A stretch of DNA of 64,000 nt from Candidatus Cloacimonadota bacterium (GTDB taxonomy: Bacteria > Cloacimonadota > Cloacimonadia > Cloacimonadales > PWNZ01). The DNA lies in NCBI GenBank assembly GCA_003564155.1, contig PWOA01000092.1, forward strand, positions 4,375-68,374, written 5' to 3'. Of the stretch, positions 8,105-41,647 are shown in pieces. Numbering within the stretch: the first letter of the stretch is position 1; the number at the start of each line of letters is the position of its first letter. A program made the translations under genes and the position numbers. The notes beneath the pieces are model-generated. The model ran no database searches and had not been told where the DNA came from. It saw only the letters and a list, made by a program, of their open reading frames with translations.

Positions 8105-9196
8105 TTAAGCTGGATTATTATTCATAAATTGAATCATAAACTTTGCAAGCTCTTTAGTAGCTTCTAGGGGTAAGGCGTTATAAGTTGATGCCCTACAGCC
8201 TCCAACACTTCTATGACCTTTTAATCCACTAAAATTGTTTGCTGCTGCTTCTTTTATGAATTTTGCTTCTAAATCCTCGGAAGGTAAACGCCAGGTGATG
8301 TTCATTAAAGAACGATCTTCTTTGGCTACCGTTCCTCGATAGTAGTTATTAGAGTTATCAATCGTGTCGTATAGATTTGATGCCTTTTATTGATTGTGCT
8401 TTTCGATTGCTGCAAGACCACCTTTGTTTTCCAACCATTTCATAACTAAACCGATAATATAGATTATAAAAGTTGGTGGTGTATTATGCATAGAACCTTT
8501 TTTAATATGTGTCTGGTATGACATCATAGTGGGTAAATCCGGTTGTAAGCGTTCTATCATATCTTTCCGGATAAGTACCAAAGTTGCTCCAGCAGGTCCG
8601 ATGTTTTTTTGAGCACCGGCATATATTAGACCAAACTTATTAACATCAATAGGCTTACTCATGATATCTGAAGACATGTCGCAAAATAGAGGTATATCTT
8701 GAGGTAATTCTGGATATTTATGATACTGAGTACCTGCAATCGTATTATTTGAGGTTATATGCAGATATGCTGGATTATCCGAAAGTTTAAACTCTTTGGG
8801 GATATAACTAAAATTCCTATCTTCCGAACTGGCTGCTAAATTAGCTGTTTTACCTATTATTTTTGCTTCTTTATAGGCATTATTTGCCCAGGTACCTGTA
8901 TTAATAAAATTAGCTTCCTTGTCAGGTGGGCAGAAGTTAAGTGCAGACATCAAAAATTGAGTCGTAGCTCCTCCACCTAAAAACAAAACTTCAAAATTAT
9001 CTCCTAAACCAAACACTCTTTTAACAGATTCAACAGTTTCATTAAAAATTGCTTGGTAATCTTTTGAGCGATGGCTCATCTCCATGACAGACATACCTTT
9101 GCCCTTGTAATTCAATAGATCCTTTTGAATTTCCAACAATACTTCAACCGGTAAAACCGCTGGTCCGGCACTAAAGTTGTGAACTCTTTCTTGCAT
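8105..9196 (-). pseudogene. serC: Phosphoserine aminotransferase interrupted by one in-frame TAA at 8387-8389
   Basis: HNFSAGPA, EMSHRS, DMSSD, YAGAQKN, TPP. The frame continues past the stop as IEKHNQ*KASNLYDTID...RSLMNITW...GLKGHRSVGGCRAS. Start taken at ATG 9196 after GGAGG. Confidence 0.85.
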
Positions 9197-9291
9197 TATA
9201 AACCTCCAGTTTTCTATTTTTTTCATTATTTACAATCGGTGTTCTAAGGCAAGCTTTTTTTACTTAATGACATACACATCTTTACTCTCTA

Positions 9292-10497
9292 TTAATAGAT
9301 AATCCATATCAAAATGGCAATCATTGTGAATGGGATCATTATTAAAGGAAATAGCTTCTTGAAAACTTGAATATATTTTGTCTCAAAATACTCTAAACTA
9401 AAAGCCATACACGGGTGTAAAGGGGAAATCAAATAACCTGCAAAAAGTGAAAAATATATAAACGAAAATAGAATACCCGGTATTACTTCCGAACCAAAAG
9501 CTACAAAAAGTAAAGGATAAACAATTGAAAGAGCTATCTCGATCCTGCCACTTATAAAACTCAGTAAAAAAGCTAACAAGCCAACGAAAACTAAAGGTGG
9601 CGAATAACCGACAAATATTGTATCTAATTTATCATAAGCCATTATCGTATTAATGAAAAGTAACAAAAAAAGAAATAATAACGAAAATTGATCTACTTTG
9701 CTGCTGGAGATTATTTTAAATAGTTTCTTTATACTAATCTTGTTTATTACTGTTGCCAAGATAACACTTACTGTCATGGATATAAAAAAAGACAACTGTT
9801 CTCGACTTCTTAATAAAGTACTGACTAAAACAACATGTAGAATGGGTGCGGATAATAATACCAACGCTATATAAAAAACATCCCTTTTCCTATTCTTTTT
9901 ATATTTAATGTCACCTGTCAAACTCTCATTTTTAATGTTTCGTAAAAGTACTAAATAACCTACAATAAATACTATTGCCGAAAAAGGTAACATATGTATT
10001 ATGGCAGTTGTTATTGTTAAACCGGCAAGTTGGGAAGCGATAATCAAAGAGCTACTTAAAGGATAAACAATAACTAAAATATGCCTAAACCATATATTGA
10101 TTGCCACATAATTATCATTTGATATATTCTTGTCAAAACCTTTAAGTAAGGGACAAGAAAGCAAGGCCCCGCCTGGAATAGGTATCAAACCAAAAAGAGC
10201 AGGTGTCATTATGAGATACTGTTTTTTATTTTTCCTGAGATTGGAAAGAACCGCATTCATGTGTATAGAGTTTCTGATTATGCCACCTAAAACAGGAATT
10301 AATCCCACAGCAATGACAAGCAGCCAATTATTAATATTTTTAATGGTTACCCAAAAAACGAATAATAATTCACCTACCCCTAAGTTTATTACACCAAACG
10401 TTAGAGCACCAGCTAAAACACCTATCCATAACTTCCAACGAGAAAATAACAATAATAATATAAAAGTAACCGTTAAACTAATAATGAAACTTGTCAT
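9292..10497 (-). CDS. DUF401 family multi-pass membrane protein (putative transporter)
   Basis: PALFGLIPIPGGALLSCP, NIWFRH...YPL, GYLISPLHPC; about 11 hydrophobic segments. Confidence 0.75.
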   Translation of the reverse strand: MTSFIISLTVTFILLLLFSRWKLWIGVLAGALTFGVINLGVGELLFVFWVTIKNINNWLLVIAVGLIPVLGGIIRNSIHMNAVLSNLRKNKKQYLIMTPALFGLIPIPGGALLSCPLLKGFDKNISNDNYVAINIWFRHILVIVYPLSSSLIIASQLAGLTITTAIIHMLPFSAIVFIVGYLVLLRNIKNESLTGDIKYKKNRKRDVFYIALVLLSAPILHVVLVSTLLRSREQLSFFISMTVSVILATVINKISIKKLFKIISSSKVDQFSLLFLFLLLFINTIMAYDKLDTIFVGYSPPLVFVGLLAFLLSFISGRIEIALSIVYPLLFVAFGSEVIPGILFSFIYFSLFAGYLISPLHPCMAFSLEYFETKYIQVFKKLFPLIMIPFTMIAILIWIIY

Positions 10498-16808: not shown

Positions 16809-17237
16809 CTAATGTCCGGTAATACTATTTATACGCGCGAGGGATCGCGATAGTGCGGCTTCAGCTCTTCTATAATCAATATCTTCACTTTGTGTAGCCA
16901 GTCTTTCTTTAGCTCTCTTTTTTGCTCTTTCAGCGCGACCTTTATCGACTTCATGGGTGGTTTCTATTACCTCACAAACAATGCGAATGACATCTTTCTC
17001 GACGGTGACAAAACCATCATGAATTGCAAATACAATGTTTTCACCAAGTTTAAACACAGTAAGTACACCTGGCCTTATAGCAGTGATCAAGGGAGTGTGA
17101 TCCGGATAAACACCAAAATCGCCAGCAAATCCGGGAACTATTACATGTTCACATTCTTCGTTGATAACTATTCTTGTGGGTTGTATAATCTTTATCCTTA
17201 ATTTAGACTTTTTCGCATTATTATTATTCTCTGGCAA
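16809..17237 (-). CDS. atpC: ATP synthase epsilon subunit
   Basis: PG..GDFGVYPDHTPLITAIRPG, IHDGF, C-terminal helical hairpin; last gene of the operon. Confidence 0.92.
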   Translation of the reverse strand: MPENNNNAKKSKLRIKIIQPTRIVINEECEHVIVPGFAGDFGVYPDHTPLITAIRPGVLTVFKLGENIVFAIHDGFVTVEKDVIRIVCEVIETTHEVDKGRAERAKKRAKERLATQSEDIDYRRAEAALSRSLARINSITGH

Positions 17238-17255
17238 AATATTCTCCCCAGCAAC

Positions 17256-18721: not shown

Positions 18722-19606
18722 TTAATCACTTATTGCTTCCGCACCGGAAGCAATCTCGATTATTTCAGTAGTTATAGCTGATTGTCTAGCTCTATTATGC
18801 ATTAATGTTAATTCATCAATCATTTCAATAGCATTTTCCGTGGCATTATCCATAGCTGTCATTCTAGCTCCTTGTTCTGCAGCACTGGATTCTAACAACA
18901 TTCTCCAAATCTCTACATCTACATATTTTTCACCTAATTCATTAATTATTGTATCTTCATCAGGTTCATATATATAATCTGTCTCTGAAACTACATCGGA
19001 TTCGATCGGTATTATTGGTAGTAGCTGACGTTCAATTATATTTTGCTGAATAGCCGACTTGAACTCGTTATAAATTACATCAATTCTTTGGTAACCTTTG
19101 TTAATAAAAAGATCGATCATTTTATTGCTAATCGACCGTGAAAATTTAAAATCCATTTCGTTGAAAAAATCAAGATATTTGTCAATTATATTATCAGTAT
19201 GCTTTTTTAATTGATCAAATCCTTTCTTACCAATACATACTACATCTACATGTTTATGGTTTTTTAAATAGGTATTAGCTGATCTTATGATATTAGAGTT
19301 AAAAGAACCACATAGACCTCTATCTGCAGTGATAACAATTAACACTCTTCTGGTTTGTTGAACGTCCGAAACAGCATCGTTTTCCTCTGATACATCACAA
19401 CAAAGAAAGGGGTTATCTGTAGCAGGATTTTTATATTTTACTGTTCTAATCATCATGTCTAAATAATCGGCATAAGGACGAGCATTAATAATTTTTTCTT
19501 GAGCTTTTCTAAGTTTAGAGGCAGCTACCATCTTCATAGCATTAGTTATCTGTTTAGTATTTTTGACCGACACTATGCGGTTTTTTATGTCTCTAATATT
19601 AGCCAT
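18722..19606 (-). CDS. atpG: ATP synthase gamma subunit
   Basis: QITNAMKMVAASK, DRGLCGSFN, EQGARMTAMDNATENA, RQSAITTEI. Confidence 0.97.
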   Translation of the reverse strand: MANIRDIKNRIVSVKNTKQITNAMKMVAASKLRKAQEKIINARPYADYLDMMIRTVKYKNPATDNPFLCCDVSEENDAVSDVQQTRRVLIVITADRGLCGSFNSNIIRSANTYLKNHKHVDVVCIGKKGFDQLKKHTDNIIDKYLDFFNEMDFKFSRSISNKMIDLFINKGYQRIDVIYNEFKSAIQQNIIERQLLPIIPIESDVVSETDYIYEPDEDTIINELGEKYVDVEIWRMLLESSAAEQGARMTAMDNATENAIEMIDELTLMHNRARQSAITTEIIEIASGAEAISD

Positions 19607-21827: not shown

Positions 21828-22298
21828 TTATTCTTGCAATAATTTTTCGATTAGTTCGGCATCAATTTTTTGATCTAAGTTCTTACCAATAACTTTTGAC
21901 GTCAGAATTGATACAATCTCGCTCAATCTCCCTTCTACTTCCTTGATAGCTTTAGTCTTTTCTTGCACTAGTTGATTTTCAGTATCAATGAGGACAGCTT
22001 TTTCACGTTCTCTAGCTTCCTTTATTATCTTATCACTTAAAGCTTCAGATTCTTTAGTAGCTTTCTCTTTCATCTTTCTAATTTGTAAAGAAGTCTTTTT
22101 GTAATCTTCTTCTTGTTTCTTTAATAATGTATCTGCTTCTTTTTTCAGGTTATCTGCTGTACTTAAATCCGACGATATTGCTGTCTGACGTTCAGTTAGA
22201 AACTTTTTTATCGGCTTATAAAGAAGATGATTTAATATTATAAGCAGAAAAATAAAGTTCAATATTACAATGATTAAAGTATAATCTACACTAATCAT
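21828..22298 (-). CDS. atpF: ATP synthase b subunit
   Basis: N-terminal TM (ILNFIFLLIIL..LLYKPI...ERQ..I) followed by a long charged helix. Confidence 0.92.
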   Translation of the reverse strand: MISVDYTLIIVILNFIFLLIILNHLLYKPIKKFLTERQTAISSDLSTADNLKKEADTLLKKQEEDYKKTSLQIRKMKEKATKESEALSDKIIKEAREREKAVLIDTENQLVQEKTKAIKEVEGRLSEIVSILTSKVIGKNLDQKIDAELIEKLLQE

Positions 22299-22370
22299 AA
22301 CTACGCTCTCCGTTTATTTTTTTGTTATTTCTGGTTCCGGATAATCAAAAATACTATGTCGATTTATTCT

Positions 22371-22616
22371 TTATCCAGTGGTAAATATTAACAACAATGC
22401 TATAACTAAAGAATATATACCTGTTGATTCTGCTACAGCCTGTCCTAAAAGCATCGTTCTGGTTAACAAAGCTGAGTTTTCTGGAGAGCGAGCTATACCT
22501 TCACAAGCCTTACCGGCAACAAAACCTTGACCAATACCAGGACCCAAAGCCCCTATTCCCATGCATATACCGGCACCCAAAAAAGCAGCCGATCTAACAA
22601 TAAGTGAAAAATCCAT
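22371..22616 (-). CDS. atpE: ATP synthase c subunit, single hairpin, Na+-type
   Basis: GPGIGQG ... R-S-P ... QAVAESTGIY: Q30/E63/S64/T65/Y68 give the full Na+-binding motif; strong GGAGG RBS. Confidence 0.96.
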   Translation of the reverse strand: MDFSLIVRSAAFLGAGICMGIGALGPGIGQGFVAGKACEGIARSPENSALLTRTMLLGQAVAESTGIYSLVIALLLIFTTG

Positions 22617-22715
22617 TATACCTCCGATTTTTTTGTTCTTTTATTTTAATAGTTAACGACAATCTAACTTATTACCCATATATTAAATCTAAATATTTTG
22701 ATATCGTAAACTCTT

Positions 22716-23462
22716 TTAAAGAGCATACATTAATAAGAAAGCTATAACTAATGAATATATTGCAGTAGATTCTGTTACTGCAGCACCGACAAACATAGTT
22801 CGCATAATAGTCGTTCTTTCACGAGGATAACGTCCTATCATATCGCTTGCTTTTCCTGCAACAAAACCAATTGCTGTCCCCGGTCCAAAAGTACCAAAAC
22901 CAATACACAAACCGGCTCCCAAGTAAGATACCGATCTCATAATTTGTTGATTTAAAGTAAGGTGTGAAAATTCGGGAATAGCATACAATAATAATAAAGC
23001 AACAACTAATGCAAATATAGAGCTAGCTTGTGATAATGCTTGACCGATAAGCATATTTCCCATTATCTCGTTACCCTTAGTGGGCATTCTGGAAAGAGCT
23101 GAGCAAGCGTAACCGCCAGCATATCCGGACCCAAATCCAGGACCGACACTGCCCAATCCCATTGCTATTCCTCCAGCTAATAATGCAGCAGCTTTAACTA
23201 TTCCGCCTTCGACATCTAATCCACCAAAAAGGAGTAATAAGGATATTACTAATGAAAATATTGCACCTGTTTCCGTGACAGCTTGACTGACCAACATAGT
23301 TCTGGATAGTTGATCAGAAGTTTTTGGCTGTCTCATTAAAGCAAAGTTAGCTAATCCGGCGGTATATCCTTCTCCGTATCCAGCACTTAATGATGCAAAT
23401 GAAACACTAATCGCCGCTCCCAAGTATGCAGCTATTTGTACTAATTCAATACTATCAATCAT
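22716..23462 (-). CDS. atpE: Triplicated (three-hairpin, 6-TM) ATP synthase c subunit
   Basis: Three tandem c repeats with loops RQP, RMP, RYP; carboxylate positions E64, Q145, E231; located between atpB and the short atpE. Confidence 0.92.
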   Translation of the reverse strand: MIDSIELVQIAAYLGAAISVSFASLSAGYGEGYTAGLANFALMRQPKTSDQLSRTMLVSQAVTETGAIFSLVISLLLLFGGLDVEGGIVKAAALLAGGIAMGLGSVGPGFGSGYAGGYACSALSRMPTKGNEIMGNMLIGQALSQASSIFALVVALLLLYAIPEFSHLTLNQQIMRSVSYLGAGLCIGFGTFGPGTAIGFVAGKASDMIGRYPRERTTIMRTMFVGAAVTESTAIYSLVIAFLLMYAL

Positions 23463-23471
23463 TTTTTTCTC

Positions 23472-24371
23472 TTAATCAAATATTTCTACAGCAATGTAAC
23501 TCATTGCTAACATTGTGAATACAAACGCCTGTAGTGTGCCAATAAATAGTCCAAAAAACATGTTTAATCCTACAGGCAAGATAATAAAACGAACTAAAGA
23601 TGAAATCACTAACAATATAATAGCTCCTCCAAGCACATTACCGAATAGACGAAACGATATCGATATACCCTTGGAGAGTTCCCCAACTACATTAATAGGT
23701 GCCATAGGCAAAAAAGGTTCTGCATAACCTTTTAAATATTTAGTTAACCCCTTATGCTTTAACGACATAAAATGTACAACTCCAACTACTAATATCCCCA
23801 TACCAAAAGGAACGTTTATATTTCTGGTAGGCTCCATGAAACCGGGTATAGGTATCAAGCCAATTAAGTTACAGCTCCATATAAAAATAAATATGGTCAA
23901 AACGTATGAGGTAAAATGAGTTTTATCTTTACCTAAAGTCTCTCTAGTCAGATCTTCGAAAAAACTATACATCATTTCAAACACTATCTGCTTTTTAGTA
24001 GGGATAAGGGCAATGGATTTCCTGACCAGATACACAATAATAAGAAGAACAATATTAACAATGATTAGCATCCTTATTAATTCAAAAGCATAGAGAGTCT
24101 TTTCACCAAAAAAAGTTGCAAAAAAACCATGTAATCTTTCACTACCGTAAATTGTAGGCGTAACTCCTTTGGCTTTAAAATACTCATCAGGTTGAAACTC
24201 TTCCATGATCCTGTCTTGAATAGTCATTGGATATTCACTATTCCAAATCGAAAACTTACCGGTATCTGGATGTAAACCAATATTCAATTTATAATCAATC
24301 CCAAAAGATAGAATTGCTTGAATAACAATAAAAAACAATAACAGTCTAAAAAAAGTCTTCTTGCTCATCAA
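23472..24371 (-). CDS. atpB: ATP synthase a subunit with N-terminal extension
   Basis: NLIGLIP...PT.N.N, ISISFRLFGN (essential Arg), LQAFVFTML...YI. Confidence 0.95.
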   Translation of the reverse strand: MMSKKTFFRLLLFFIVIQAILSFGIDYKLNIGLHPDTGKFSIWNSEYPMTIQDRIMEEFQPDEYFKAKGVTPTIYGSERLHGFFATFFGEKTLYAFELIRMLIIVNIVLLIIVYLVRKSIALIPTKKQIVFEMMYSFFEDLTRETLGKDKTHFTSYVLTIFIFIWSCNLIGLIPIPGFMEPTRNINVPFGMGILVVGVVHFMSLKHKGLTKYLKGYAEPFLPMAPINVVGELSKGISISFRLFGNVLGGAIILLVISSLVRFIILPVGLNMFFGLFIGTLQAFVFTMLAMSYIAVEIFD

Positions 24372-24517: not shown

Positions 24518-24901
24518 TTACTTTTTCTTCCTATTAACTAATTCGTAAATATAATATCCATAAACAGTTAGTTGAACACTAACTAAAGCCAAACCATAAA
24601 CCAGTATGTCAGGCTTAAGCAATACAACAATTATTACAGAATATACAGCTAATGCTACAAAACGGAAATTAAACAATTTAAAACTGTTTAATTTAGAACT
24701 GTGAGGTTCCTTGCTCATACTGCTATTCACATTATGTGACAGCCAGTAAAAATTCAAACTACTTGCTACAGTTCCGGTAATCCATCCAATTGCCTGACTA
24801 TACATCGAGGGCAAAAACAATATGGCTGGTATATTTGTCAAGCAAACTATGAAAATTATCCGTTTGACATAATTATCATAGCCGGTTTTTATCTTCATCA
24901 T
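24518..24901 (-). CDS. atpI: ATP synthase assembly protein I
   Basis: Four hydrophobic helices, G...S.LNF and RF motifs; directly upstream of atpB. Confidence 0.75.
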   Translation of the reverse strand: MMKIKTGYDNYVKRIIFIVCLTNIPAILFLPSMYSQAIGWITGTVASSLNFYWLSHNVNSSMSKEPHSSKLNSFKLFNFRFVALAVYSVIIVVLLKPDILVYGLALVSVQLTVYGYYIYELVNRKKK

Positions 24902-25118
24902 AGAATTTCTTTAAGTGTTTATAGTTCAAATATATACCTGATAGTACACCTAATACTATACCTATTGCTAAAATAACGTATCCTGTGTTAAATGTTTTTT
25001 CGATGTATAAAAATATGAAGAAAAATACCAACAGACTAATAACTATATTCAAACCTAGACGTCCTATCATACTTATAGAACGAAGTATTTCTTTATCAGC
25101 TAATATTTTTCTTAACAA
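24876..25118 (-). CDS. AtpZ/'gene 1' family two-helix ATP synthase accessory protein
   Basis: 80 aa, two TM helices with IEK.FNT...G..LG..SG pattern; first gene of the atp cluster. Confidence 0.7.
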   Translation of the reverse strand: MLRKILADKEILRSISMIGRLGLNIVISLLVFFFIFLYIEKTFNTGYVILAIGIVLGVLSGIYLNYKHLKKFYDEDKNRL

Positions 25119-25131: not shown

Positions 25132-25545
25132 TTACCATTTATCTTGCCAGTTGTTAGCTTTTTCTGTTCCTGCACTTCCTTCTTTTTCACCCGCACTTAA
25201 AATTGGTTTCTTATCTCCGGTATGGCAATGACCTGAAATAATTGCACCTGAGTGAACAGTTAATGTCTTAGCAACAATATCACCTTTTATTCTAGCACTC
25301 TTGTCGAGTTCAAGCTCTTCAGAAACTTTTATATTCCCGTCCAGTTGTCCGGTCACAAGACATTCTTTAGCTGTAATATTAGCTTTTGCCTTGCCGGATA
25401 AACCTATGGCAACAAAACCATCAGCATTTAATGTCCCTTCTATAGTACCATCGATTCTAATTCCACCGCTAATTTTTAGCTCTCCTTTAATGACGCTATT
25501 TTTCCCAATAATTGTCGAAAGTTCAACCTTACGATTTTTTAGCAT
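25132..25545 (-). CDS. Bactofilin (polymer-forming cytoskeletal protein)
   Basis: STIIGKNSVIKGEL...GIRIDGTIEG...GAIISG beta-helix repeats; AAGGAG RBS before ATG 25545. Confidence 0.9.
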   Translation of the reverse strand: MLKNRKVELSTIIGKNSVIKGELKISGGIRIDGTIEGTLNADGFVAIGLSGKAKANITAKECLVTGQLDGNIKVSEELELDKSARIKGDIVAKTLTVHSGAIISGHCHTGDKKPILSAGEKEGSAGTEKANNWQDKW

Positions 25546-25577
25546 TATTGACTCCTTATGCAAAATTTTGAAAATAT

Positions 25578-26291
25578 TTATTCTTTAGTATTGTAATCTA
25601 TATAGTTTGCCAAATTCATCGGATCTGTATTATCTCCTCGATATATGATTTCAAAATGTAAGTGGGGTGCTGGGCTGAAACCTGAACTACCTACCAACCC
25701 AATCGTTTGCCGTTTTTCCACGAATATACCTGGCTCAAAAAATGTTTTTGCTAAGTGTGCATAAAAACTTATATAATGGTTTAAATGATCAATAATCACA
25801 ACATTGCCGAAATACTTATCTTCATATACCGACTTAATAACACCAGCTGCAGTGGCGACAACTTCCGTTCCTAGAGGTGCTGCTAGATCTATACCTTTAT
25901 GGTTATCTGAAAAATATTGGCTAATTTCGAATCTATCAACAATTGGAATAACATTAGGGATAAATCTTTGTTTAAGTTGATAATCATGAAGATCATTCCT
26001 TAACTCTTCCGTTGATACCGATAAGTCCGGATGATATTGTTGGTTATTGTAATCTCTTAAGTAATTCTCCAATAATTCGCGGATTTTTATAGTTTTGGGG
26101 ATATCGAACCTTTGGTTTGAATTTGATTCAAATTGCTTTATTTTATCTTGAAGATTATTTAAGTAAACCATTAATGCTTCGTTCTCTTCTTTGTTACTCT
26201 CGAGTCTACTGTTGAGAGAAATGTTTTCATAGATTAAATACATGTTAGCAAAAAGCAATATTATGCATATAAATATTAAAATCTTCATCAA
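25578..26291 (-). CDS. Membrane-anchored M23 family peptidoglycan endopeptidase
   Basis: N-terminal TM, coiled coil, HKGID, YAHL, HLHFE. Confidence 0.9.
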   Translation of the reverse strand: MMKILIFICIILLFANMYLIYENISLNSRLESNKEENEALMVYLNNLQDKIKQFESNSNQRFDIPKTIKIRELLENYLRDYNNQQYHPDLSVSTEELRNDLHDYQLKQRFIPNVIPIVDRFEISQYFSDNHKGIDLAAPLGTEVVATAAGVIKSVYEDKYFGNVVIIDHLNHYISFYAHLAKTFFEPGIFVEKRQTIGLVGSSGFSPAPHLHFEIIYRGDNTDPMNLANYIDYNTKE

Positions 26292-26368
26292 GCTACCTCT
26301 AGAGATCTTTGCTAAAAAAATTGGGGCAAGTTAGTATCATAATTTCATATATATCCAAGTATATATTG

Positions 26369-27235
26369 TCACAGCTTCTTTCCCGGTATAAAAGTGCTAA
26401 AAAGTTTTTGTAATTCTTCCTCACTTCTATAATGTATAGAAATTTTACCTCCCTTTTTACCTTCTTCAACTTTTACCGGCATGGACAATTTTTCTCCAAT
26501 TTGATGCTGAATATAGCTGAGGTAGGATTTACGTTCCTTATTCTCTTCCGGATCATTATTATTTTTATCTTCTTTGTTCGAAAGTCTTCTTAACCAATGT
26601 TCAGTTTCCCTTACCGAATAATTTCTCTTGATGACCATATCGGCATAATTTGATTGATCTTTAATATCCAATTGTAGTAATGCTCGACCATGTCCGGGGC
26701 TTATCTTGCCTGAGGAGATAAAGTTTTGGACCTTACTGTCCAGTTTAAGTAACCTAACTGTATTAGTTACAGTCACTCTCTCTTTACCCATAAGTTTGGC
26801 AATATCCTGATGTGTTAAATTAAACTGTTCTTGGAGCTGTTGGTATGCTTTAGCTTCTTCAATGGGATTAAGATTCTCTCTTTGAATGTTTTCAATTAAT
26901 GCAAACTGAAGCTGTTCACGGGGTGATACACATCTGATTATTACCGGAACTTCGTTAAAACCTGCAATTTTTGCTGCTTCTAAACGCCTCTCACCAGCTA
27001 TTAGTTCATATTCTGATTTGGAATTCTTTGTGACGATAATAGGCTGTATCATTCCGCTTTCAGCCAGTGAATTGGCTAATTCATTAAGCTTTTCTTCGTC
27101 AAATACATGTCTAGGCTGATAAGGATTAGGATGAATATTCCCAATTTTTATTGTTGCAATCCCCGTATTTTTATCAATTGATTCTTGCCCTGTTGAAATA
27201 AGTGCTTCCAGTCCACGTCCTAATCTTTTATTCAT
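26369..27235 (-). CDS. parB: Chromosome partitioning protein ParB
   Basis: LGRGLEAL, PNPYQPR, IAGERR, ENIQRENL, HTH. Confidence 0.95.
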   Translation of the reverse strand: MNKRLGRGLEALISTGQESIDKNTGIATIKIGNIHPNPYQPRHVFDEEKLNELANSLAESGMIQPIIVTKNSKSEYELIAGERRLEAAKIAGFNEVPVIIRCVSPREQLQFALIENIQRENLNPIEEAKAYQQLQEQFNLTHQDIAKLMGKERVTVTNTVRLLKLDSKVQNFISSGKISPGHGRALLQLDIKDQSNYADMVIKRNYSVRETEHWLRRLSNKEDKNNNDPEENKERKSYLSYIQHQIGEKLSMPVKVEEGKKGGKISIHYRSEEELQKLFSTFIPGKKL

Positions 27236-27990
27236 CTTGTTAATAACTCCGTTGCTAGTTGAAGATAATTTTTTGCACCTGCCGATGTAATATCATAGTG
27301 AAAAATCGGTTTACCAAAACTCGGTGCTTCTCCTAATTTAACGTTACGGCCTATCATGGTATCAAATATTTTCTCTTTAAAATAACGTCTAACTTCCTTA
27401 GCTACTTGTAAGGATAAGTTAAGTCTTTTATCATACATTGTTAAAACAACGCCTAAAATGTTTAATTCAGTATTAAGATTTCTTTTTATCAATCTTATCG
27501 TGTTAAGTAATTGACTAACACCTTCCAATGCATAGTACTCACATTGTATCGGTATTAAAACATCAGTTGCGGCAGTTAAAGCATTAATAGTCAGCAAACC
27601 TAATGAAGGAGGACAATCAATAATCAAGTATTCATAATCATTCTTAACTAAATTTAGTGCCTCTTTCAATTTATTCTCTCGAGCAAATTCTCTTACTAAC
27701 TCTATTTCAGCTCCTGTCAGATCAATATTACTGGGAATAATATCTAAATTCTTCACGTCCGTTTGTCGTATGGCTTCCGTTGCCTTAGATCTATGAATTA
27801 GAACATCATACATATGTTTTTCAAGATTTTCTTTATCAAATCCGAATGCACTGGTCGTATTACCTTGTGGATCCAGATCGAGAAGCAGAGTTCTATGCTC
27901 ATAAATGCCAAGAGCTGAAGCTAAATTTACTGCTGTGGTTGTCTTGCCGACACCACCTTTTTGATTAACGATAGCTACTATTCTACTCAT
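27232..27990 (-). CDS. parA: Chromosome partitioning ATPase ParA/Soj
   Basis: NQKGGVGKTT, DLDPQGN, DCPPSLG, EAPSFG. Confidence 0.95.
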   Translation of the reverse strand: MSRIVAIVNQKGGVGKTTTAVNLASALGIYEHRTLLLDLDPQGNTTSAFGFDKENLEKHMYDVLIHRSKATEAIRQTDVKNLDIIPSNIDLTGAEIELVREFARENKLKEALNLVKNDYEYLIIDCPPSLGLLTINALTAATDVLIPIQCEYYALEGVSQLLNTIRLIKRNLNTELNILGVVLTMYDKRLNLSLQVAKEVRRYFKEKIFDTMIGRNVKLGEAPSFGKPIFHYDITSAGAKNYLQLATELLTR

Positions 27991-28643
27991 GATAAGACTT
28001 TTTGTTTTTTTATCTTAATTAATTTCCTTTCCTTTTCAGGGAAATCTATTCCATCAAATATTTCTGTTTCCAGGTTTACCAATTCCTTTTCTAGCCTTTT
28101 CGCTTTATACAAAATAACATAACCAGTATCATTCAGTAACGACATCATCGTTTTTAATAAAATATTTGTTATTGCAACTGACCTGCAAACAATCACATCA
28201 TAAGCTGTCGTTGCTAAGCCATTGACTAATACTAGTTTTCTTCCAATTTCTTCCAAACGTTTACATAATACATAACAATTATCTAAGTCAAGTTTTTTTA
28301 TCATTATCTCTATTTGTTCAATTTTTTTTAACCTTGAATCCAGTAAATGCATAATCATCTTATCTTGCATTATCGCTAAAGGTATTCCTGGCAGACCTGC
28401 TCCAGTCCCAAAATCTAACACTTTCTTTCCTGAAAAGTCAAATCCGTAAAGTAAAGGTAACAAAGAATCATAAAAATGGTTTAACCAGATATCTTCAGGT
28501 AGAATTTTTCGTGAAAAAAGGTTAATACGTTTATTTGCCTTTATTAAAAGAGTGTGATAATCTTCAAATAATTGCGCAGTTTTACCATAATTTGAAGAAT
28601 TAGCCGCTAAATAATCCATAAAAAAACTTTTCGAATGTTTCAT
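27987..28643 (-). CDS. rsmG: 16S rRNA m7G527 methyltransferase
   Basis: N..INL, HFYDSL, LDFGTGAGLPGIPL, LLDSRLKK; upstream of parA. Confidence 0.9.
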   Translation of the reverse strand: MKHSKSFFMDYLAANSSNYGKTAQLFEDYHTLLIKANKRINLFSRKILPEDIWLNHFYDSLLPLLYGFDFSGKKVLDFGTGAGLPGIPLAIMQDKMIMHLLDSRLKKIEQIEIMIKKLDLDNCYVLCKRLEEIGRKLVLVNGLATTAYDVIVCRSVAITNILLKTMMSLLNDTGYVILYKAKRLEKELVNLETEIFDGIDFPEKERKLIKIKKQKVLS

Positions 28644-28759: not shown

Positions 28760-29704
28760 TTATTTTTCAATAACAGTACCCGTCTTACCTTCTAACGCAT
28801 CTCCAATCTTCTCGGCTGATGTAATGATAACTTTTGAACCGCCTGCTGTTAAAAAATTGATAGCAGCTTGAATTTTTGGACCCATACTTCCAGCAGGAAA
28901 ATGGCCTTCATCATAAAGCATTTTAGCTTCTTTTACCATTATGTTATCTAAGTCTTTTTGGTTGGGTTTACCAAAGTTAATGGCAACTTTATCAACTCCA
29001 GTCAGGATCATAAGCAAATCGGCCTCAATCTCATTTGCTAGCAAAGCAGATGCAAAATCTTTATCTATAACCGCATCTCCACCTTGTAATAATCCATCTT
29101 CATCGTAATAAACAGGTATTCCTCCACCTCCGCAAGCGATAACTAAAACTCCTTCTTCAACTAACTCTCTAATTATTCCAGCCTGAAGAATATCCTTTGG
29201 TATTGGGGACGGAACTATTTGCCGGTAACCTCTACCGGCATCTTCTCGGATATACCATCCAAATTCTCGGTAAAGCCTTTCCGCCTCTTCTTTAGTATAG
29301 AAGGGACCGACCGGTTTAGTAGGTTTTTTAAAACTTTCATCATCTTTATCTATGACCACCTGAGTTATTATCGTAACCACTTTGTTTGTCAAACCTTCTT
29401 GATGGAGTTTATTCTCAATACATTGACCAATCATATAACCCATAGTACCCTCAGTGGCAGCATTTAAAAAAGATAAAGGAAGAGGTGTAACTCCCATTTT
29501 CACACCGGCATGTTGTTGTATAAGAAGATTGCCTACTTGAGGTCCATTACCATGTGTGATTACCAGTTGATAATCTTTTTTAACTAATTCAATAACACCT
29601 GTTATATTTTCCATTGTATTGTTAAATTGTTCTGAAACTGTTCCTTTTTGTCCAGCTTTGAGTATTGCGTTGCCCCCTAATGCTAAGACAGCTTTTTTTT
29701 TCAT
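28760..29704 (-). CDS. arcC: Carbamate kinase
   Basis: ALGGNA, THGNGPQVG, PTKPVG, GGGGIPV, AVIDKD, GSMGPK. Confidence 0.95.
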   Translation of the reverse strand: MKKKAVLALGGNAILKAGQKGTVSEQFNNTMENITGVIELVKKDYQLVITHGNGPQVGNLLIQQHAGVKMGVTPLPLSFLNAATEGTMGYMIGQCIENKLHQEGLTNKVVTIITQVVIDKDDESFKKPTKPVGPFYTKEEAERLYREFGWYIREDAGRGYRQIVPSPIPKDILQAGIIRELVEEGVLVIACGGGGIPVYYDEDGLLQGGDAVIDKDFASALLANEIEADLLMILTGVDKVAINFGKPNQKDLDNIMVKEAKMLYDEGHFPAGSMGPKIQAAINFLTAGGSKVIITSAEKIGDALEGKTGTVIEK

Positions 29705-29892
29705 GAAACCTCCAATTTTTTATCATTTTTAGGTGCTAAGTGGGAAGAAAATTCGAGTAGAGATAAATATGGGCAGACCTAGATAATATTTTGTCGCTAA
29801 TAAACAACTAAGTATTATTTTCGGTCTGCCCTAATCTCTAAGTTAGCTTTAGCCACTAAGTTAGTGAAGAGATTATGATTATTTAGTTATAT

Positions 29893-29921
29893 ATTTTAGT
29901 TGTCTAAGTACGGTTTGTCAA
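29893..29921 (-). promoter_or_regulatory. Sigma70-type promoter for arcC
   Basis: Minus strand TTGACA (29921-29916), 17-nt spacer, TAAAAT (29898-29893); implies a leader of about 180 nt. Confidence 0.6.
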
Positions 29922-29939
29922 TCAATTATTTAGAATTTC

Positions 29940-31262
29940 TTAGTAAATATTAAAATCCTTCAATATCTCTTCGAAAGTAGGTGAACCAATTTCTTGAGTT
30001 TCGAAAGTTACCCTTGCTATTGGTTTATTCACTTTTATTATTCTGGAAAGATCAATCGGAGTTGCGGAAACTATAACATCACAATCTACATTGTTAATTG
30101 TAGTTTCTAAGTCTTGGATTTGTTGTTGACTGTAACCCATTGCCGGCAACAATAAACCTATGTCAGGATATTTTTCAAAAGTCTCGGCTATAGTTCCTAC
30201 TGCTGCTTCTCGAGGATCAACTAATTCATCAGCTCCAAATTTCATCGCCGCTACAACACCTTCTCCAAACTCCATATTACCATGAGTATGGGTAGGACCA
30301 TCTTCTATAACTAATACTCGTTTACCTTTAATAATTTCCGAATTCTGAACTCTGACTGGTAATGCAGCATCAACTACAGTAGCACCCGGATTGTATTCGC
30401 GGATATTATCGCGTACTTCGATAATTTCATTAAGATCACTGGTATCGATCCTATTGATAACGACAACATCTGCCATAAGAAGATTTGTTTCACCGGGATA
30501 ATAAGTCAGTTCATCACCGGCTCTACGGGGATCTGTTATTACAATGTTTAACTGTTTATCAGAACAATAGAAAGATGAATCATTATTTCCTCCGTCCCAA
30601 ATAATAACATCAGCTTCCTTTTCAGCTTCTTTGAGAATTGCCCCATAATCAATTCCTGCGTAGATTATACTGCCCATCTCGACATGAGGTTCATATTCTT
30701 CCATTTCTTCGATTGTACAGTCATGTTTTTTAAGGTCTTCTAATGATGCAAATCGCTGAACTTTTTGGGCATCTAAGTCACCATAAGGCATTGGATGCCG
30801 GATAGAGACTACCTTTAAACCTTTAGATTTCAATAGTCTAACTATAGGTCTGCTAGTTTCGCTTTTCCCGACTCCTGTTCGAACACCACATACGTTGATC
30901 AAAGGTTTACTAGTTTTAATCATCGTATTTTTGGTACCTAATAACCAGAAATCTGCTCCAATTGCATTTACTAATGATGCTTTATGCATGACCTCTTCAT
31001 GGGTAATATCACTGTAAGCAAAAACCACACAATCAACCTCTAATTCGTCAACAAGATTCTTTAGATTATCTTCGGAATAGATTGGTATTCCTTCCGGATA
31101 GAGTTTACCGGCTAAAGATGACGGATAAGATTTACCGTCAATATTGGGTATCTGCGTTGCAGTAAAAGCTACTACCTCATAAGCATCATTATCACGAAAA
31201 CAGACATTAAAATTATGGAAATCTCTACCTGCTGCTCCCATAATTATTACTCGTTTCTTCAT
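29940..31262 (-). CDS. COG2403 P-loop protein (cDPGS-like), probable arginine synthetase ArcE
   Basis: GAAGRDFHNFN, AFTATQIP, RTGVGKS, RHPMPYG, WDGGNND, EDGPT, PAMGY; directly upstream of carbamate kinase. Confidence 0.75.
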   Translation of the reverse strand: MKKRVIIMGAAGRDFHNFNVCFRDNDAYEVVAFTATQIPNIDGKSYPSSLAGKLYPEGIPIYSEDNLKNLVDELEVDCVVFAYSDITHEEVMHKASLVNAIGADFWLLGTKNTMIKTSKPLINVCGVRTGVGKSETSRPIVRLLKSKGLKVVSIRHPMPYGDLDAQKVQRFASLEDLKKHDCTIEEMEEYEPHVEMGSIIYAGIDYGAILKEAEKEADVIIWDGGNNDSSFYCSDKQLNIVITDPRRAGDELTYYPGETNLLMADVVVINRIDTSDLNEIIEVRDNIREYNPGATVVDAALPVRVQNSEIIKGKRVLVIEDGPTHTHGNMEFGEGVVAAMKFGADELVDPREAAVGTIAETFEKYPDIGLLLPAMGYSQQQIQDLETTINNVDCDVIVSATPIDLSRIIKVNKPIARVTFETQEIGSPTFEEILKDFNIY

Positions 31263-36343: not shown

Positions 36344-36799
36344 ATGTATCAGGAGATATTAAAAAAATATGAACCCACTAAGGATAATTTAATATATATC
36401 CTCCACGACATACAAGACAATGATCCTCAGCACTATGTTTCTGAGTCTGCAGTCCAAAGTGTATCGGAATATTTAAGAATACCGGTAAATCATATTTACG
36501 GTGTTTTAACTTTTTATACTATGTATAGCACCACACCTCGAGGGAAGAATGTTATCCGTCTATGCGAATCACCTCCTTGTTACCTGAGAGGTAGTGATAA
36601 TATTCTTGCAAAATTAAAAAACACCTTAGGTATAAAAACCGGGGAAACTACTTCCGACGGCTTATTTACTTTGGAGTTATGTGCTTGTTTAGGATTATGT
36701 GGTAATGCACCTGTAATGATGATTAATGATGATTTCTATGGAGATTTAACTGACGACAAGATTGATCAAATAATTCATAATATTAGGGAGGCGAAGTAA
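36344..36799 (+). CDS. HydC/HndA (NuoE-like) [2Fe-2S] subunit
   Basis: GVLTFY, CESPPC, CLGLCGNAPVM. Confidence 0.92.
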   Translation: MYQEILKKYEPTKDNLIYILHDIQDNDPQHYVSESAVQSVSEYLRIPVNHIYGVLTFYTMYSTTPRGKNVIRLCESPPCYLRGSDNILAKLKNTLGIKTGETTSDGLFTLELCACLGLCGNAPVMMINDDFYGDLTDDKIDQIIHNIREAK

Positions 36800-38379
36800 T
36801 GAAGTATTTCCGCAGTCATATATTGATAGAAACTGATGAAGCATCAGTACAACAAGGTGCTCGGGAAGTTATGAATGCACTAAAGCAAGAGCTTGCTAAG
36901 CATAATTTAGATCAGGAGGTAAACGTTTTAGAGACCGGCTCTTTAGGTTTCTTTGAACGTGGAGTTTGTATTGCAGTCTACCCTGATGATGTTATATATG
37001 GCAATGTTAAAGTTGAGGATGTTTCTAGTTTAGTTTCGGAACATTTCCTTAAAGGCCGCCCCCTTACACATTTAGTCATAGAGAGATCAGAAAAGAAAAA
37101 TATCCCCTTGGGATATGATAAACGGATTGTTCTCGAAAATTCCGGTAACATAGATCCGGAAGAGATAAATGACTATCTTGGAGTAGGTGGATACTTAGCT
37201 TGGGAGAAAGCACTTTTAGAAATGAAACCGGAAGATATCGTGCAAACTGTAAAGGATTCCGGACTCAGAGGTCGTGGTGGTGCAGGTTTTCCAGCAGGCA
37301 TAAAATGGAGTTTTACATCACCTATTAAGGGAGTCCAAAAATATGTCGTAATTAACGCTGATGAAGGTGAACCTGGAACATTCAAAGATAGGTTGATCAT
37401 GGAAGGTGATCCGCATAAACTATTGGAAGGGACAATGATTGCTTCATTAGCCGTAGGAGCGACCAAAGCATATATATACATCAGAGGCGAATACAAGTTA
37501 TGCATTAACCGTTTGCAGAGAGCAATAGATCAAGCCTATGAATATGGTTTACTTGGTAAAAACATTCTTGAATCAGGATTTGATTTAGACATCGAAATAG
37601 AAACAGGTGCAGGTGCTTACATATGTGGTGAAGAAACTGCTCTGATCGAATCAATGGAAGGTAATCGTGGAATTCCACGAACAAAGCCTCCTTATCCCGG
37701 TGTTAAAGGTTTTATGCAGAATCCTACAGTTGTTAATAATGTTGAAACAATTGCTAATGTACCAGCGATAATCAATAAAGGAGCAGATTGGTATAGAAAT
37801 ATCGGTACTGCTGAAAGCCCCGGAACTAAGGTATATACCATTTTAGGAGATGTTGCGGTACCAGGTCTTTGTGAAGTGCCCATGGGTACGACATTACGAA
37901 CTATAATCAACACTTATGGTGGCGGAATGAAAAAAGGAAGCCGCTTTAAATCTGCTTTAGTTGGTGGTGCAGCCGGTATATTTTTAGGTGATAACATGTT
38001 AGATGTGAAAATGGATTTTCATAATTTAGCTGAATATAAAGCAGTTTTAGGCTCTGGCGCGATATTGGTGATAAATGACTCTGTTAATATTGTTGATATG
38101 TTAGAGTCTGTAATTAAATTTTTCAGACATGAATCCTGTGGCAAGTGTGTACCCTGTCGTAACGGTAATGAACAACTATACAAATCCGTTAGGAAGATAA
38201 AAGCCGGTTATGCAGGAGAAGATGAGTTAGATAAGATGCTCTTAATTGCCGACACCATGCAAAAAACTTCATTTTGTGCTTTAGGGCAATCTTTACTATT
38301 ACCGGTTAAGAGCGCACTGGATATGTTTAAAGATGATTTCTTGTCATATATTAACAAAAAAAAAGCAATAAATAAATAA
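36799..38379 (+). CDS. HydB/HndC (NuoF-like) NADH/FMN-binding subunit, C-terminally short
   Basis: SGLRGRGGAGFP, NADEGEPGTFKD, GAGAYICGEE, ESCGKCVPCR...SFCALG; no C-terminal ferredoxin domain. Confidence 0.93.
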   Translation: MKYFRSHILIETDEASVQQGAREVMNALKQELAKHNLDQEVNVLETGSLGFFERGVCIAVYPDDVIYGNVKVEDVSSLVSEHFLKGRPLTHLVIERSEKKNIPLGYDKRIVLENSGNIDPEEINDYLGVGGYLAWEKALLEMKPEDIVQTVKDSGLRGRGGAGFPAGIKWSFTSPIKGVQKYVVINADEGEPGTFKDRLIMEGDPHKLLEGTMIASLAVGATKAYIYIRGEYKLCINRLQRAIDQAYEYGLLGKNILESGFDLDIEIETGAGAYICGEETALIESMEGNRGIPRTKPPYPGVKGFMQNPTVVNNVETIANVPAIINKGADWYRNIGTAESPGTKVYTILGDVAVPGLCEVPMGTTLRTIINTYGGGMKKGSRFKSALVGGAAGIFLGDNMLDVKMDFHNLAEYKAVLGSGAILVINDSVNIVDMLESVIKFFRHESCGKCVPCRNGNEQLYKSVRKIKAGYAGEDELDKMLLIADTMQKTSFCALGQSLLLPVKSALDMFKDDFLSYINKKKAINK

Positions 38380-38399
38380 AATAACTTTAGGGAGATGAA

Positions 38400-40178: not shown

Positions 40179-40196
40179 TATTTTGATTATATGATC

Positions 40197-40233
40197 TTAG
40201 AGACCGTTATTTTTTAACGGTCTCTAATTTTTT
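40197..40233 (+). terminator. Rho-independent terminator between hydA and hydG
   Basis: TTAGAGACCGTTA / TAACGGTCTCTAA 13-bp stem followed by TTTTTT. Confidence 0.8.
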
Positions 40234-40258
40234 AATACTATAACTACAAGAGGGAAAA

Positions 40259-41647
40259 ATGGATTCTGCTTGTTTCATAAACGAAAAACAGATTTTTGAG
40301 TTACTAGAAGCAAATAATAAACCCGACCATCATCAAATTGAAGACATTCTGGCAAAAGCTGAAGCGAAAAGAGGTCTTTCTTTAGAAGAAACTGCCATTT
40401 TACTCAGTATTCAAGGAGAAGATCAATTAAATAAGCTTTATCAAACAGCAAAAAAGATCAAAGATGAAATCTACGGTAACAGAGTCGTTATTTTTGCACC
40501 ACTTTATGTTACTAATGAATGTGCTAACGTTTGTGAATATTGCGGTTTTCGTGCTGATAACACCGATCTGCACCGTAGGACACTAACTAAGGATGAATTA
40601 CAGTTAGAAACACAAATTCTAACGGCAACAGGACATAAACGATTACTATTGGTTTACGGCGAACACCCGAAATTTACACCTCAATGGATTGCTGAATCAA
40701 TAGAAGCTGTTTATGAAACGGGTGACAATAAGAACAAAATCAGACGTATAAATGTTAATACCGCTCCTATGGATGTTTCCGGATTCAAAATTATCAAAGA
40801 AGCCGCTATAGGTACTTATCAATGTTTTCAAGAAACTTATCACCGCTCTACATATGAGAAAGTACATCTTAAAGGAATGAAAAAAGATTATCTCTATCGT
40901 CTATATACCCATCATAGAGCAAACCAAGCAGGTATTGACGATACCGGATTGGGAGTTCTCTTCGGTTTATACGATTGGAAATTTGAGATATTAGCGCTCT
41001 TGCAACACTCTTTTGATTTGGAAAAAGAATTTGGTGTTGGACCTCACACGATTTCTTTCCCACGAATAGAACCGGCATTGAATGCTCCCTTGTCTGAATG
41101 CCCCCCCTCTTTAGTAACTGATAATGATCTCAAGAAAATCATTGCTGTTGTCAGATTAGCTATACCTTATAGTGGTATAATTTTAACCACTAGAGAACAA
41201 GCAGAATTTCGGAAAGAAGTATTGGAACTCGGTGTATCACAAATATCAGCAGGATCAAGAACTTATCCAGGAGCTTATAAAGATGAAAAAGAAAACAAAC
41301 GTGATATGCAGCAATTCACTATCGGCGATACCAGATCTTTAGACGATACTATAAAGGATATTATCCAACAAGGATTCCTACCTTCGTTCTGTACTTCTTG
41401 TTATCGTAAAGGAAGAACAGGACACACTTTCATGGAGTATGCTAAACCTGGTGATATCCACAAATTTTGTCAGCCTAATGCTGTTTTTACTCTATTGGAA
41501 TATTTACTTGATTATGCTTCACCTGAGACTAAAGAGTTAGGCTTAAAAAGAATTCAGTCAGAAACGTCTAATTGCGGTATTTTCAATCATATAATTAGCG
41601 ACATGTATAATCGTGCCCTAGCTGGAGAACGTGATTTAATGCTCTGA
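40259..41647 (+). CDS. hydG: [FeFe]-hydrogenase maturase HydG
   Basis: FAPLYVTNECANVCEYCGF, FQETY, GVGPHTISFPR, SFCTSCYR.GRTG...FC (second cluster site). Confidence 0.95.
   Translation: MDSACFINEKQIFELLEANNKPDHHQIEDILAKAEAKRGLSLEETAILLSIQGEDQLNKLYQTAKKIKDEIYGNRVVIFAPLYVTNECANVCEYCGFRADNTDLHRRTLTKDELQLETQILTATGHKRLLLVYGEHPKFTPQWIAESIEAVYETGDNKNKIRRINVNTAPMDVSGFKIIKEAAIGTYQCFQETYHRSTYEKVHLKGMKKDYLYRLYTHHRANQAGIDDTGLGVLFGLYDWKFEILALLQHSFDLEKEFGVGPHTISFPRIEPALNAPLSECPPSLVTDNDLKKIIAVVRLAIPYSGIILTTREQAEFRKEVLELGVSQISAGSRTYPGAYKDEKENKRDMQQFTIGDTRSLDDTIKDIIQQGFLPSFCTSCYRKGRTGHTFMEYAKPGDIHKFCQPNAVFTLLEYLLDYASPETKELGLKRIQSETSNCGIFNHIISDMYNRALAGERDLML

Follow-up and report, generated by a model that had tools for sequence, protein, structure and literature searches.

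The window (the whole stretch of 64,000 nucleotides that was analyzed) carries on its minus strand an ATP synthase operon in the order atpZ-I-B-E1-E2-F-H-A-G-D-C, in which a long and a short gene of subunit c follow each other. Its genes and features are given below.

24876..25118, minus strand: atpZ (ATPase gene 1), PF09527
24518..24901, minus strand: atpI, PF03899 with 24.4 bits, slightly below the cut-off of 25.1
23472..24371, minus strand: atpB, subunit a, 299 aa, PF00119 on residues 101-293
23468..23473, minus strand: AAGAGA, weak Shine-Dalgarno-like site of the long c that shares bases with the atpB stop codon, -2.9 kcal/mol
22716..23462, minus strand: atpE1, long c, 248 aa, three c hairpins (six transmembrane helices), open reading frame with three PF00137 stretches
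23226..23450, minus strand: repeat 1 of the long c, residues 5-79, with an intact acceptor half of the two-carboxylate Na+ type (E31, E64)
22983..23201, minus strand: repeat 2 of the long c, residues 88-160, no carboxylate (S112, Q145)
22725..22955, minus strand: repeat 3 of the long c, residues 170-246, Glu231 with Ile198 at the Gln32 position, a Glu-only site
22621..22625, minus strand: GGAGG, strong Shine-Dalgarno of the short c, -10.1 kcal/mol
22371..22616, minus strand: atpE2, short c, 81 aa, single hairpin, one PF00137 stretch
21828..22298, minus strand: atpF, subunit b, 156 aa, PF00430 and TIGR01144
21189..21716, minus strand: atpH, delta, PF00213 and TIGR01145
19645..21144, minus strand: atpA, alpha, TIGR00962 above cut-off, N-type TIGR03324 below
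18722..19606, minus strand: atpG, gamma, TIGR01146
17256..18650, minus strand: atpD, beta, TIGR01039 above cut-off, TIGR03305 below
16809..17237, minus strand: atpC, epsilon, start codon uncertain, PF02823 and PF00401

The genes for subunits a, b, c, delta, alpha, gamma, beta and epsilon are all present in canonical order, which marks the enzyme as F-type. The preliminary description of this DNA had claimed a complete F-type operon with two c genes, a 248-aa long c made of three c repeats with no stops and with E64, Q145 and E231, and a short c with the full Na+ motif behind a GGAGG; the gene calls, the Pfam/TIGRFAM models and the expected three PF00137 stretches bear this out, the motif of the short c being Q30/E63/S64/T65/Y68. 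The long c starts 9 nt past the atpB stop behind a weak AAGAGA, also as described, and it may be added that this hexamer overlaps the stop codon. In the alignment the atpB product shows the conserved Arg motif and is about 75 aa longer at its N-terminus. In the source genome, which is 82.6% complete, a tblastn search found atpE1 and atpE2 as the only c-like genes, the alpha, beta, a and epsilon subunits each matched this operon alone, and there was no match to the V-type subunit a (PF01496); the atp operon is the sole rotary ATPase found in it. When an internal promoter or a terminator was sought between the two c genes, the hits were about as many as chance gives (46 where 41.9 were expected, and 5 where 4.6 were).

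The long c is a real and conserved gene. The PF00137 profile gave 138 bits over its three stretches, and the AlphaFold2 model, for which the input included 103 homologues, has three helical hairpins with a mean pLDDT of 94.5 and a pTM of 0.88; the closest solved structure is 4bem_J, both by sequence (E 4.5e-30) and by fold. The aligned-base identity between the repeats ranges from 126/246 to 148/270, and since about half of the DNA is identical, the repeats have diverged and are not a collapsed or duplicated repeat of the assembly. A contig of run X1, possibly from the source sample, covers 21828-23603 without gaps, including both c genes, and its single listed difference inside the long gene (position 22914) is synonymous; a contig of a separate study (X3) covers 23083-23756, again gap-free. 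The listed DNA matches with the larger share carry salt-lake and soda-lake metagenome labels; the runs X4 and X5, with a small share, are left aside for the habitat. No RNA data set appears among the listed matches, which speaks neither for nor against expression.

The named homologues of the long c are Cloacimonadota, and 101 of the 178 genomes of this phylum match it. Outside the families f3, f4 and f5 there are matches in 98 of 99 genomes, 94 of them near-full-length without stops; G124, G145, G158 and G183 have partial or short-c matches and one further genome has none. The three families themselves (79 genomes) gave 3 weak matches. Four of the five non-matching genomes that were checked have a two-hairpin c in one frame and nothing longer, in line with the split given in the accessible text of PMC12590816, where Cloacimonadota clade B has the F-type and clade A the V/A-type ATPase. 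Ten pairs of relatives show purifying selection in each of the three repeats, with pN of 0.006-0.15, pS of 0.38-0.91 and, where unsaturated and computable, dN/dS of 0.007-0.073.

The ion sites were read as half-sites. The Na+ site is shared between two hairpins, one of them supplying positions 32 and 65 and its neighbour Ser66 and the Val63 backbone, and Tyr70 bonds to Glu65 in the Na+ site of Fusobacterium nucleatum (PMC3692424, accessible text). The direction is set by Enterococcus hirae NtpK, where the donor hairpin comes before the acceptor (PMC2359735), and the same rule is given for double hairpins in the accessible part of bioRxiv 10.64898/2026.10.01.756066. In the register used here, Gln/Glu32 and Glu65 form the acceptor half, and Ser66 and Tyr70, with Thr67 following the V-type K arrangement, belong to the preceding donor hairpin.

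Beside its intact acceptor half, repeat 1 has a degraded donor half (T65, G66, F69), and its helix-1 Gly/Pro motif is changed to S21, A23, S26 and A27; equivalents of Gly25 and Pro28 are absent from this helix in 103 of the 103 listed three-repeat homologues. The donor half of repeat 2 is degraded as well (A146, S147, F150), and that of repeat 3 is intact (S232, T233, Y236). The junction from short c to repeat 1 therefore combines, by this register, the S/T/Y ligands with E31/E64 into a complete two-carboxylate Na+ site; the junction from repeat 1 to 2 (T65/G66/F69 with S112/Q145) is dead, that from repeat 2 to 3 (A146/S147/F150 with I198/E231) is a Glu without Na+ ligands, and that from repeat 3 to short c (S232/T233/Y236 with Q30/E63) is again complete.

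The same arrangement is kept among the 103 listed three-repeat homologues, where position 65 of repeat 2 is Gln in 102 and its position 70 is Phe in all 103, and repeat 3 has Ile/Val32 in 102, Glu65 in 89, Ser66 in 103 and Tyr70 in 101; a complete internal junction occurs in 0 of 206. Judged by these motifs, the long c contributes one complete Na+ site, one dead site and one Glu-only site. The earlier expectation of fewer ion sites than hairpins stands, but two glutamates do not make two equal Na+ sites, because E231 is paired with Ile198 instead of Gln/Glu32 and only one Na+ site is left.

The short c is by its motif of the Na+-coupled type, and it aligns motif for motif with the subunits of I. 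tartaricus (1yce) and F. nucleatum (3zk1). Its helix 1 has one residue more than the subunits which form c11 rings, and it aligns without gaps to 2wie. It follows the long c in 29 of 30 Cloacimonadota loci, the short-c match of the remaining one (G010) being on a separate contig; 25 of these 29 short subunits have the E/E, S-T-Y motif and the rest have Q/E. The ribosome sites of the two genes are unequal. With duplex energies calculated on a generic anti-SD motif, the site of the short c is the strongest among the 10 operon genes scored, and the predicted site is stronger for the short c in 25 of 29 Cloacimonadota loci, which are kin and not independent, with medians of -9.5 kcal/mol for the short and -6.1 kcal/mol for the long c. 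The same holds in 77 of 77 Desulfobacterota loci (from the best 80 of 408), likewise related to each other. In the five closer pairs of relatives pS is lower for the short c (0.22-0.36 against 0.38-0.77), as expected if the short c is the more highly expressed.

The best explanation of these data, and in our view a probable one, is a Na+ F1Fo ATP synthase containing a hybrid rotor of the Acetobacterium type which has a longer ion-poor arc. The c-ring would consist mostly of single-hairpin c, with the three-hairpin c present once or a few times, and the long c would slot in between short subunits, completing a Na+ site on each side. The repeat-1 Glu is lost in 43 of the 103 listed three-repeat homologues (3 changes on the tree), and all 43 keep the S-T-Y of repeat 3, the 2 exceptions to S-T-Y both retaining the repeat-1 Glu. 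A donor half that is preserved after the long c has lost its own acceptor can serve only the short c, which points, at the level of sequence, to a ring in which one-hairpin and three-hairpin subunits are mixed. The mixed ring with few long copies, as had been proposed in the preliminary description, gains support from the sequences.

A structure prediction of the long c with two short c subunits lends weak support, with a complex score of 0.59 against 0.06 for the best control, which may reflect likeness to solved c-rings; of 157 solved pairs 116 came up to the mark for such a complex, as did 2 of the 215 mismatched ones, and those past the mark with a score of 0.60 or less comprise 18 of the 157 solved pairs and both mismatches. 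The prediction runs of long and short c agree in at least 95% of the contacts, and the partner pLDDT is at least 83.

Each copy of the long c would take two Na+ sites out of the ring and keep its diameter. Arithmetically, one long c would give 3.0 instead of 3.67 Na+/ATP in an assumed ring of 11 hairpins and 4.0 instead of 4.67 in one of 14, so that the long c probably lowers the sodium spent per ATP. The enzyme would most likely make ATP from a Na+ gradient generated by Rnf. The source genome encodes RnfD, a membrane pyrophosphatase and two antiporter-like PF00361 subunits, and the 64-kb window holds a multi-subunit [FeFe] hydrogenase cluster, which together fit a fermenter that makes ATP in this manner; the beta subunit of a Na+-pumping decarboxylase was not found in the 82.6%-complete genome. 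The earlier suggestion that the rotor favours pumping loses ground, since this is the only rotary ATPase found there, an Rnf subunit is present and the hybrid enzyme of A. woodii synthesises ATP (PMC9171764, accessible text).

Some observations count against the hybrid rotor as the best explanation, among them that the long c lacks the N-terminal extension of c1 of A. woodii. One E56Q exchange in a fused c10 was enough to stop ATP synthesis in Bacillus PS3 (PMC8809890, which cites Mitome 2004; accessible text), so ion-blind positions are not always tolerated, and the consecutive positions without a Na+ site would be two here and up to five in the listed six-hairpin relatives. The interface from repeat 3 to repeat 1 of the window protein is by its sequence also a complete Na+ site, by which contacts between long subunits are possible.

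The hybrid rotor may be extended by a second ion, a reading which is possible but doubtful. The site between repeats 2 and 3 would then be a working H+ site, and the ring would carry n Na+ and one H+ per long c in each turn. E231 lies in a hydrophobic pocket (Ile198, Ala146, Phe150), and the listed three-repeat homologues preserve this setting with the Glu in 89 of 103, Ile/Val32 in 102 and the donor Phe70 in all. The accessible text of PMC7594442 reports that hydrophobic sites favour H+ and that the choice of ion is not set by subunit a, and the available part of bioRxiv 10.64898/2026.10.01.756066 takes a lone Glu as the minimal requirement of H+ transport. Against this, the repeat 3 Glu is lost in 14 of the 103 (6 changes on the tree), 4 of the 103 have no Glu in any repeat, and Thr/Ser66 is still found in 87 of 103 donors, so that relatives may have a weak Na+ site here; F. 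nucleatum has a permanently protonated Glu which is not involved in transport (PMC3692424, accessible text). We tentatively suggest the more general picture of gene-encoded 'gear blocks', in which a fused c of 3-6 hairpins may act as an ion-poor arc in a Na+ ring, with hairpins and sites varying by lineage, and the Cloacimonadota block may in addition hold an H+-only site (Glu231/Ile198), so that both gradients would be used in each turn.

It is also conceivable, though on balance rather improbable, that the long c is mainly structural, being a pre-folded arc which nucleates ring assembly together with AtpI or fixes the size and curvature of the ring, with the ion count as a secondary matter. 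The protein is kept even in the 4 of 103 listed homologues without any Glu, in the repeat tree every repeat position falls into a supported clade of its own, and atpI is present in the operon; the Gly25/Pro28 equivalents gone from repeat 1 in all 103 belong to a glycine motif linked to ring size (PMC7594442, accessible text). Nucleation, however, needs no loss of ligands, and yet none of the 206 listed internal junctions is complete. Such a role is compatible with the hybrid rotor and not exclusive of it.

Two separate rings, or a variable ratio with several copies of the long c serving as a gear shift or for Na+ pumping, are unlikely. The complete repeat 3 to repeat 1 interface of the window protein and the missing N-terminal extension of the long c would permit a homo-ring, which would have one Na+ site per three hairpins as against one per two in V-type K. 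A homo-ring of any of the 43 homologues without the repeat-1 Glu would have no Na+ site at all; the ribosome site of the long c is weak, and the genome (82.6% complete) has no other rotary ATPase among its matches and has Rnf alongside. Finally, an assembly artefact, which the preliminary description had named as a possible refutation, a pseudogene or a silent fusion can practically be dismissed, as the weak ribosome site of the long c is outweighed by a frame that stays open throughout the phylum in the full-length matches listed (94 of the 99 genomes outside f3, f4 and f5 have it nearly complete), the gap-free contigs, the diverged repeats and the strong purifying selection.

Long c subunits form a wider family. 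A set of 231 distinct homologous proteins was assembled from the best 120 of 1198 and the best 120 of 2023 matches, and it contains three hairpins in 103, four in 51, five in 59 and six in 18 proteins. In the listed forms with 4-6 hairpins the first repeat keeps Glu65 in 127 of 128 and the last repeat always has S-T-Y, and most of them have one or two complete Na+ sites. A scan of genomes gave 63 four-hairpin and 17 five-hairpin proteins among the best 80 of 408 loci (one was scored six through a partial match), whose titles are Desulfobacterota lineages or broader proteobacterial labels, with subunit a before the long c in 79 and a short c after it in 77. No F1 genes were found beside the long c in the flanking DNA of these 80 loci, apart from one weak beta-like match on the opposite strand. 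In the best 80 of 408 loci the 4-5-hairpin forms belong to separate Fo-only operons of Desulfobacterota.

Four cultured strains are among the carriers of these loci, namely Desulfatibacillum alkenivorans, Desulfosarcina variabilis, Dethiosulfatarculus sandiegensis and Desulfocarbo indianensis. All five genomes examined contain another Z-a-c locus, whose motif is Q/E, S-L-Y, and F1 beta is present in one copy in three of them and in two copies in the other two; the F1 operon lies apart from the 4-5-hairpin c locus in 4 of the 4 genomes where it was retrieved. The accessible text of PMC4154653 reports an ectopic second Fo locus in Desulfococcus oleovorans and does not mention a long c in it. Further lineages with 2-5 hairpins, one of them named candidate division TM6, appear among the best 150 of 3392 matches in a 50%-identity library.

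The origin of the fusions was approached by repeat trees of 67-68 columns, in which three alternative groupings received AU p values of 0.40, 0.38 and 0.39, which allows the fusions of Cloacimonadota and Desulfobacterota to have arisen either once or separately. A grouping of repeat 3 with the Cloacimonadota short c appeared in a quick tree only and was dropped, being absent from the careful tree. Subunit a of Cloacimonadota and of Desulfobacterota falls on one side of the starred branch against 6 other rows, with one long branch. The co-evolution of half-sites was also considered in the listed 4-6-repeat proteins, where Tyr70 against E32/E65 of the next repeat gives raw counts of 55/9/14/401; after kinship correction on 127 of 128 rows (P0161 left out) there are 3 changes with a sign test p of 1, and this candidate was rejected.

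The ratio of ions to ATP determines how much energy is at the disposal of anaerobes that live close to the thermodynamic limit, and metabolic models derive this ratio from how large the c-ring is. The three-hairpin c is standard in most Cloacimonadota families, and sulfate reducers, cultured strains among them, commonly carry the 4-5-hairpin forms. The question is raised how a rotor crosses two to five consecutive positions free of Na+ sites when one blank stopped that of PS3, and, should Glu231 indeed be a proton carrier, one and the same ring would run on two ions, each with sites of its own.

The preliminary description knew of no characterised example, in agreement with the searchable literature, where we found no description of an F-type c with three or more hairpins (the 2015 hybrid-rotor survey lies outside its coverage). 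This survey, by Brandt and Muller, reportedly lists roughly a dozen species that combine an F-type c with a two-hairpin c; D. alkenivorans may be one of them. In the searchable literature, as far as its accessible text goes, hybrid F-type rotors are those of A. woodii and Clostridium aceticum only, with a two-hairpin c1. Long c subunits are not mentioned in the accessible portions of PMC5109826, PMC11887813, PMC4103992, PMC2702500 and PMC9324843. The main text of bioRxiv 10.64898/2026.10.01.756066 (Mulkidjanian and colleagues), so far as available, cites A. woodii as the sole mixed ring and speaks once of 'several multi-hairpin structures' without names, with no match to Cloacimon or Desulfobact. 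To the preliminary description the analysis adds the half-site register, the single Na+ site with a Glu-only site, the argument from the 43 homologues and the cultured carriers of 4-5-hairpin forms.

Among known systems, the three fused hairpins recall subunit K of the A1Ao enzyme of Methanocaldococcus jannaschii, whose triplication, noted in the preliminary description, is stated in PMC2359735 (accessible text). This K belongs to an A/V-type enzyme, whereas the window operon is F-type. M. jannaschii is not known to have a separate short c. An identity of the long c as A/V-type subunit K was rejected, since it scores 59.5 bits with NF004913, whose cut-off is 211, and reaches the cut-off of none of the K models; a V-type subunit placed in an F-type operon was likewise rejected, as F-type c models match far better and PF01496 has no match in the source genome (82.6% complete). 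NtpK of E. hirae (PDB 2BL2), the second-best fold match, also has fused hairpins and fewer sites than hairpins, but there the complete site lies inside the chain, where hairpins 1 and 2 meet (PMC2359735, accessible text), while the long c shows the reverse with its internal sites degraded and the outward halves intact, and a K of this type was discarded with 0 of 206 complete internal junctions in the listed three-repeat proteins. F. nucleatum c11 (PDB 3ZK1) has Glu at 32 and 65 as in repeat 1, in a homo-oligomeric ring of single hairpins unlike the hybrid proposed here. The N-ATPase is described with no delta, with atpR, a long b and a distinct gene order (PMC4154653, accessible text); the short c resembles TIGR03322 below its cut-off, and the N-type is ruled out by delta, the 156-aa b, the canonical order, and alpha and beta below the N-type cut-offs.

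The nearest system is that of A. woodii (c1 with nine c2/3; PDB 4BEM), where the long c gene likewise stands directly before a short Na+ c in an F-type operon with atpI. Its c1 shows the same pattern of intact outward and dead internal halves, with Q/E and T-S-F followed by Q/Q and T-T-Y. It has two hairpins, and the long c of the window has three, with two degraded internal sites, one Glu without Na+ ligands and a two-carboxylate first site (E31/E64); there is one extra helix-1 residue here, and the phylum is different. The long c has no counterpart to the N-terminal extension seen in A. woodii c1, whose first hairpin match begins at residue 23. This extension reportedly limits c1 to one copy. 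C. aceticum also has a hybrid rotor, with c1 and c2.

The A. woodii c1 is established in a c9:c1 ring, whose enzyme synthesises ATP from about 90 mV, a low threshold (PMC9171764), with n = 3.3 (PMC5662883), and the published rationale of the hybrid rotor is that ring size is kept and sites are dropped (PMC9171764, PMC7911925; accessible text in each case). A figure legend of PMC7911925 names AtpI as an assembly factor, consistent with the need for AtpI stated earlier for A. woodii. The window operon shares with these rotors the presence of both a fused and a single-hairpin c gene in an F-type operon, and the loss of the internal carboxylate (Q145) with intact outward halves, and it departs from them in having three hairpins instead of exactly two. 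The new type of hybrid rotor predicted in the preliminary description would therefore be new in its three-hairpin form but not in its principle, which is that of A. woodii, and the system is a variant of the known hybrid rotor and not a new kind of system.

The site residues of the c subunits were compared across the 30 Cloacimonadota loci that carry a three-hairpin long c, which in 29 of them is followed by a single-hairpin short c. Repeat 2 of the long c carries Glu65 in a single locus only (L029, from the relative genome G007; Ser at position 32 and Ser-Gly-Phe at positions 66, 67 and 70), which gives this long c three site glutamates. Position 32 of the short c is Gln in the window (22371-22616, minus strand) as well as in L004, L005, L006 and L024, and Glu in the other short c subunits. 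Subunit a is at least 296 aa in all 30 loci (window atpB at 23472-24371, minus strand), and the alignment places an additional hydrophobic segment and a polar domain of about 75-110 aa at its N-terminus.

Further features of the window are as follows.
16809-17255, minus strand: atpC, with a tentative start; the longest frame begins with TTG and the Pfam domain starts from residue 13.
25132-28643, minus strand: rsmG, parA, parB, M23 peptidase and bactofilin, directly upstream of atpZ and on the same strand.
28760-31262, minus strand: amino-acid-kinase-family protein, presumably a carbamate kinase, and an adjoining 440-aa P-loop protein which gave no match in the Pfam search.
36799-42940, plus strand: [FeFe] hydrogenase cluster with NuoF-like subunit, large subunit, radical SAM protein with BATS domain, and HydF.

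The Desulfobacterota (loci L031-L110, the best 80 of 408, and L119-L130) have a separate Fo-only operon in the order Z-I-a-c4/5-c1-b-b', and their subunit a is 223-229 aa and, unlike that of Cloacimonadota, lacks the N-terminal segment and polar domain. A second Z-a-c locus, whose c has Gln32, Glu65 and the Ser-Leu-Tyr motif, was also found in the five genomes examined, and since F1 beta is single in three of these five, one F1 may serve both Fo modules. Next to one four-hairpin c gene (L064, 7998-8975), neither subunit a nor a short c was detected; the same MAG contains a full Fo locus at another place (L070).

Among the matches listed from the 50%-identity library (best 150 of 3392), a large group of four-hairpin proteins, P0331, P0440, P0328 and many of 307-329 aa, was present, with the pattern Q/E, S/Q, L/E, S/D at positions 32/65; one cluster of the group is named candidate division TM6 / Vermiphilus and its representative carries an unrelated glycosyltransferase name. 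Three single chains have Glu in nearly all hairpins and are possible one-gene rings: P0317 (1139 aa, 15 hairpins, recorded as Promethearchaeota archaeon), P0321 (968 aa, 12 hairpins) and P0418 (631 aa, 8 hairpins).

Two cases can be compared with Acetobacterium woodii. The five-hairpin P0289 (435 aa) has a single Glu and its site pattern resembles A. woodii c1; all five repeats form one supported clade in the repeat tree, which points to a separate expansion. In L104, a Desulfobacterota locus, two short c genes (9009-9613) lie downstream of the four-hairpin c, as A. woodii likewise has two short c genes after c1.
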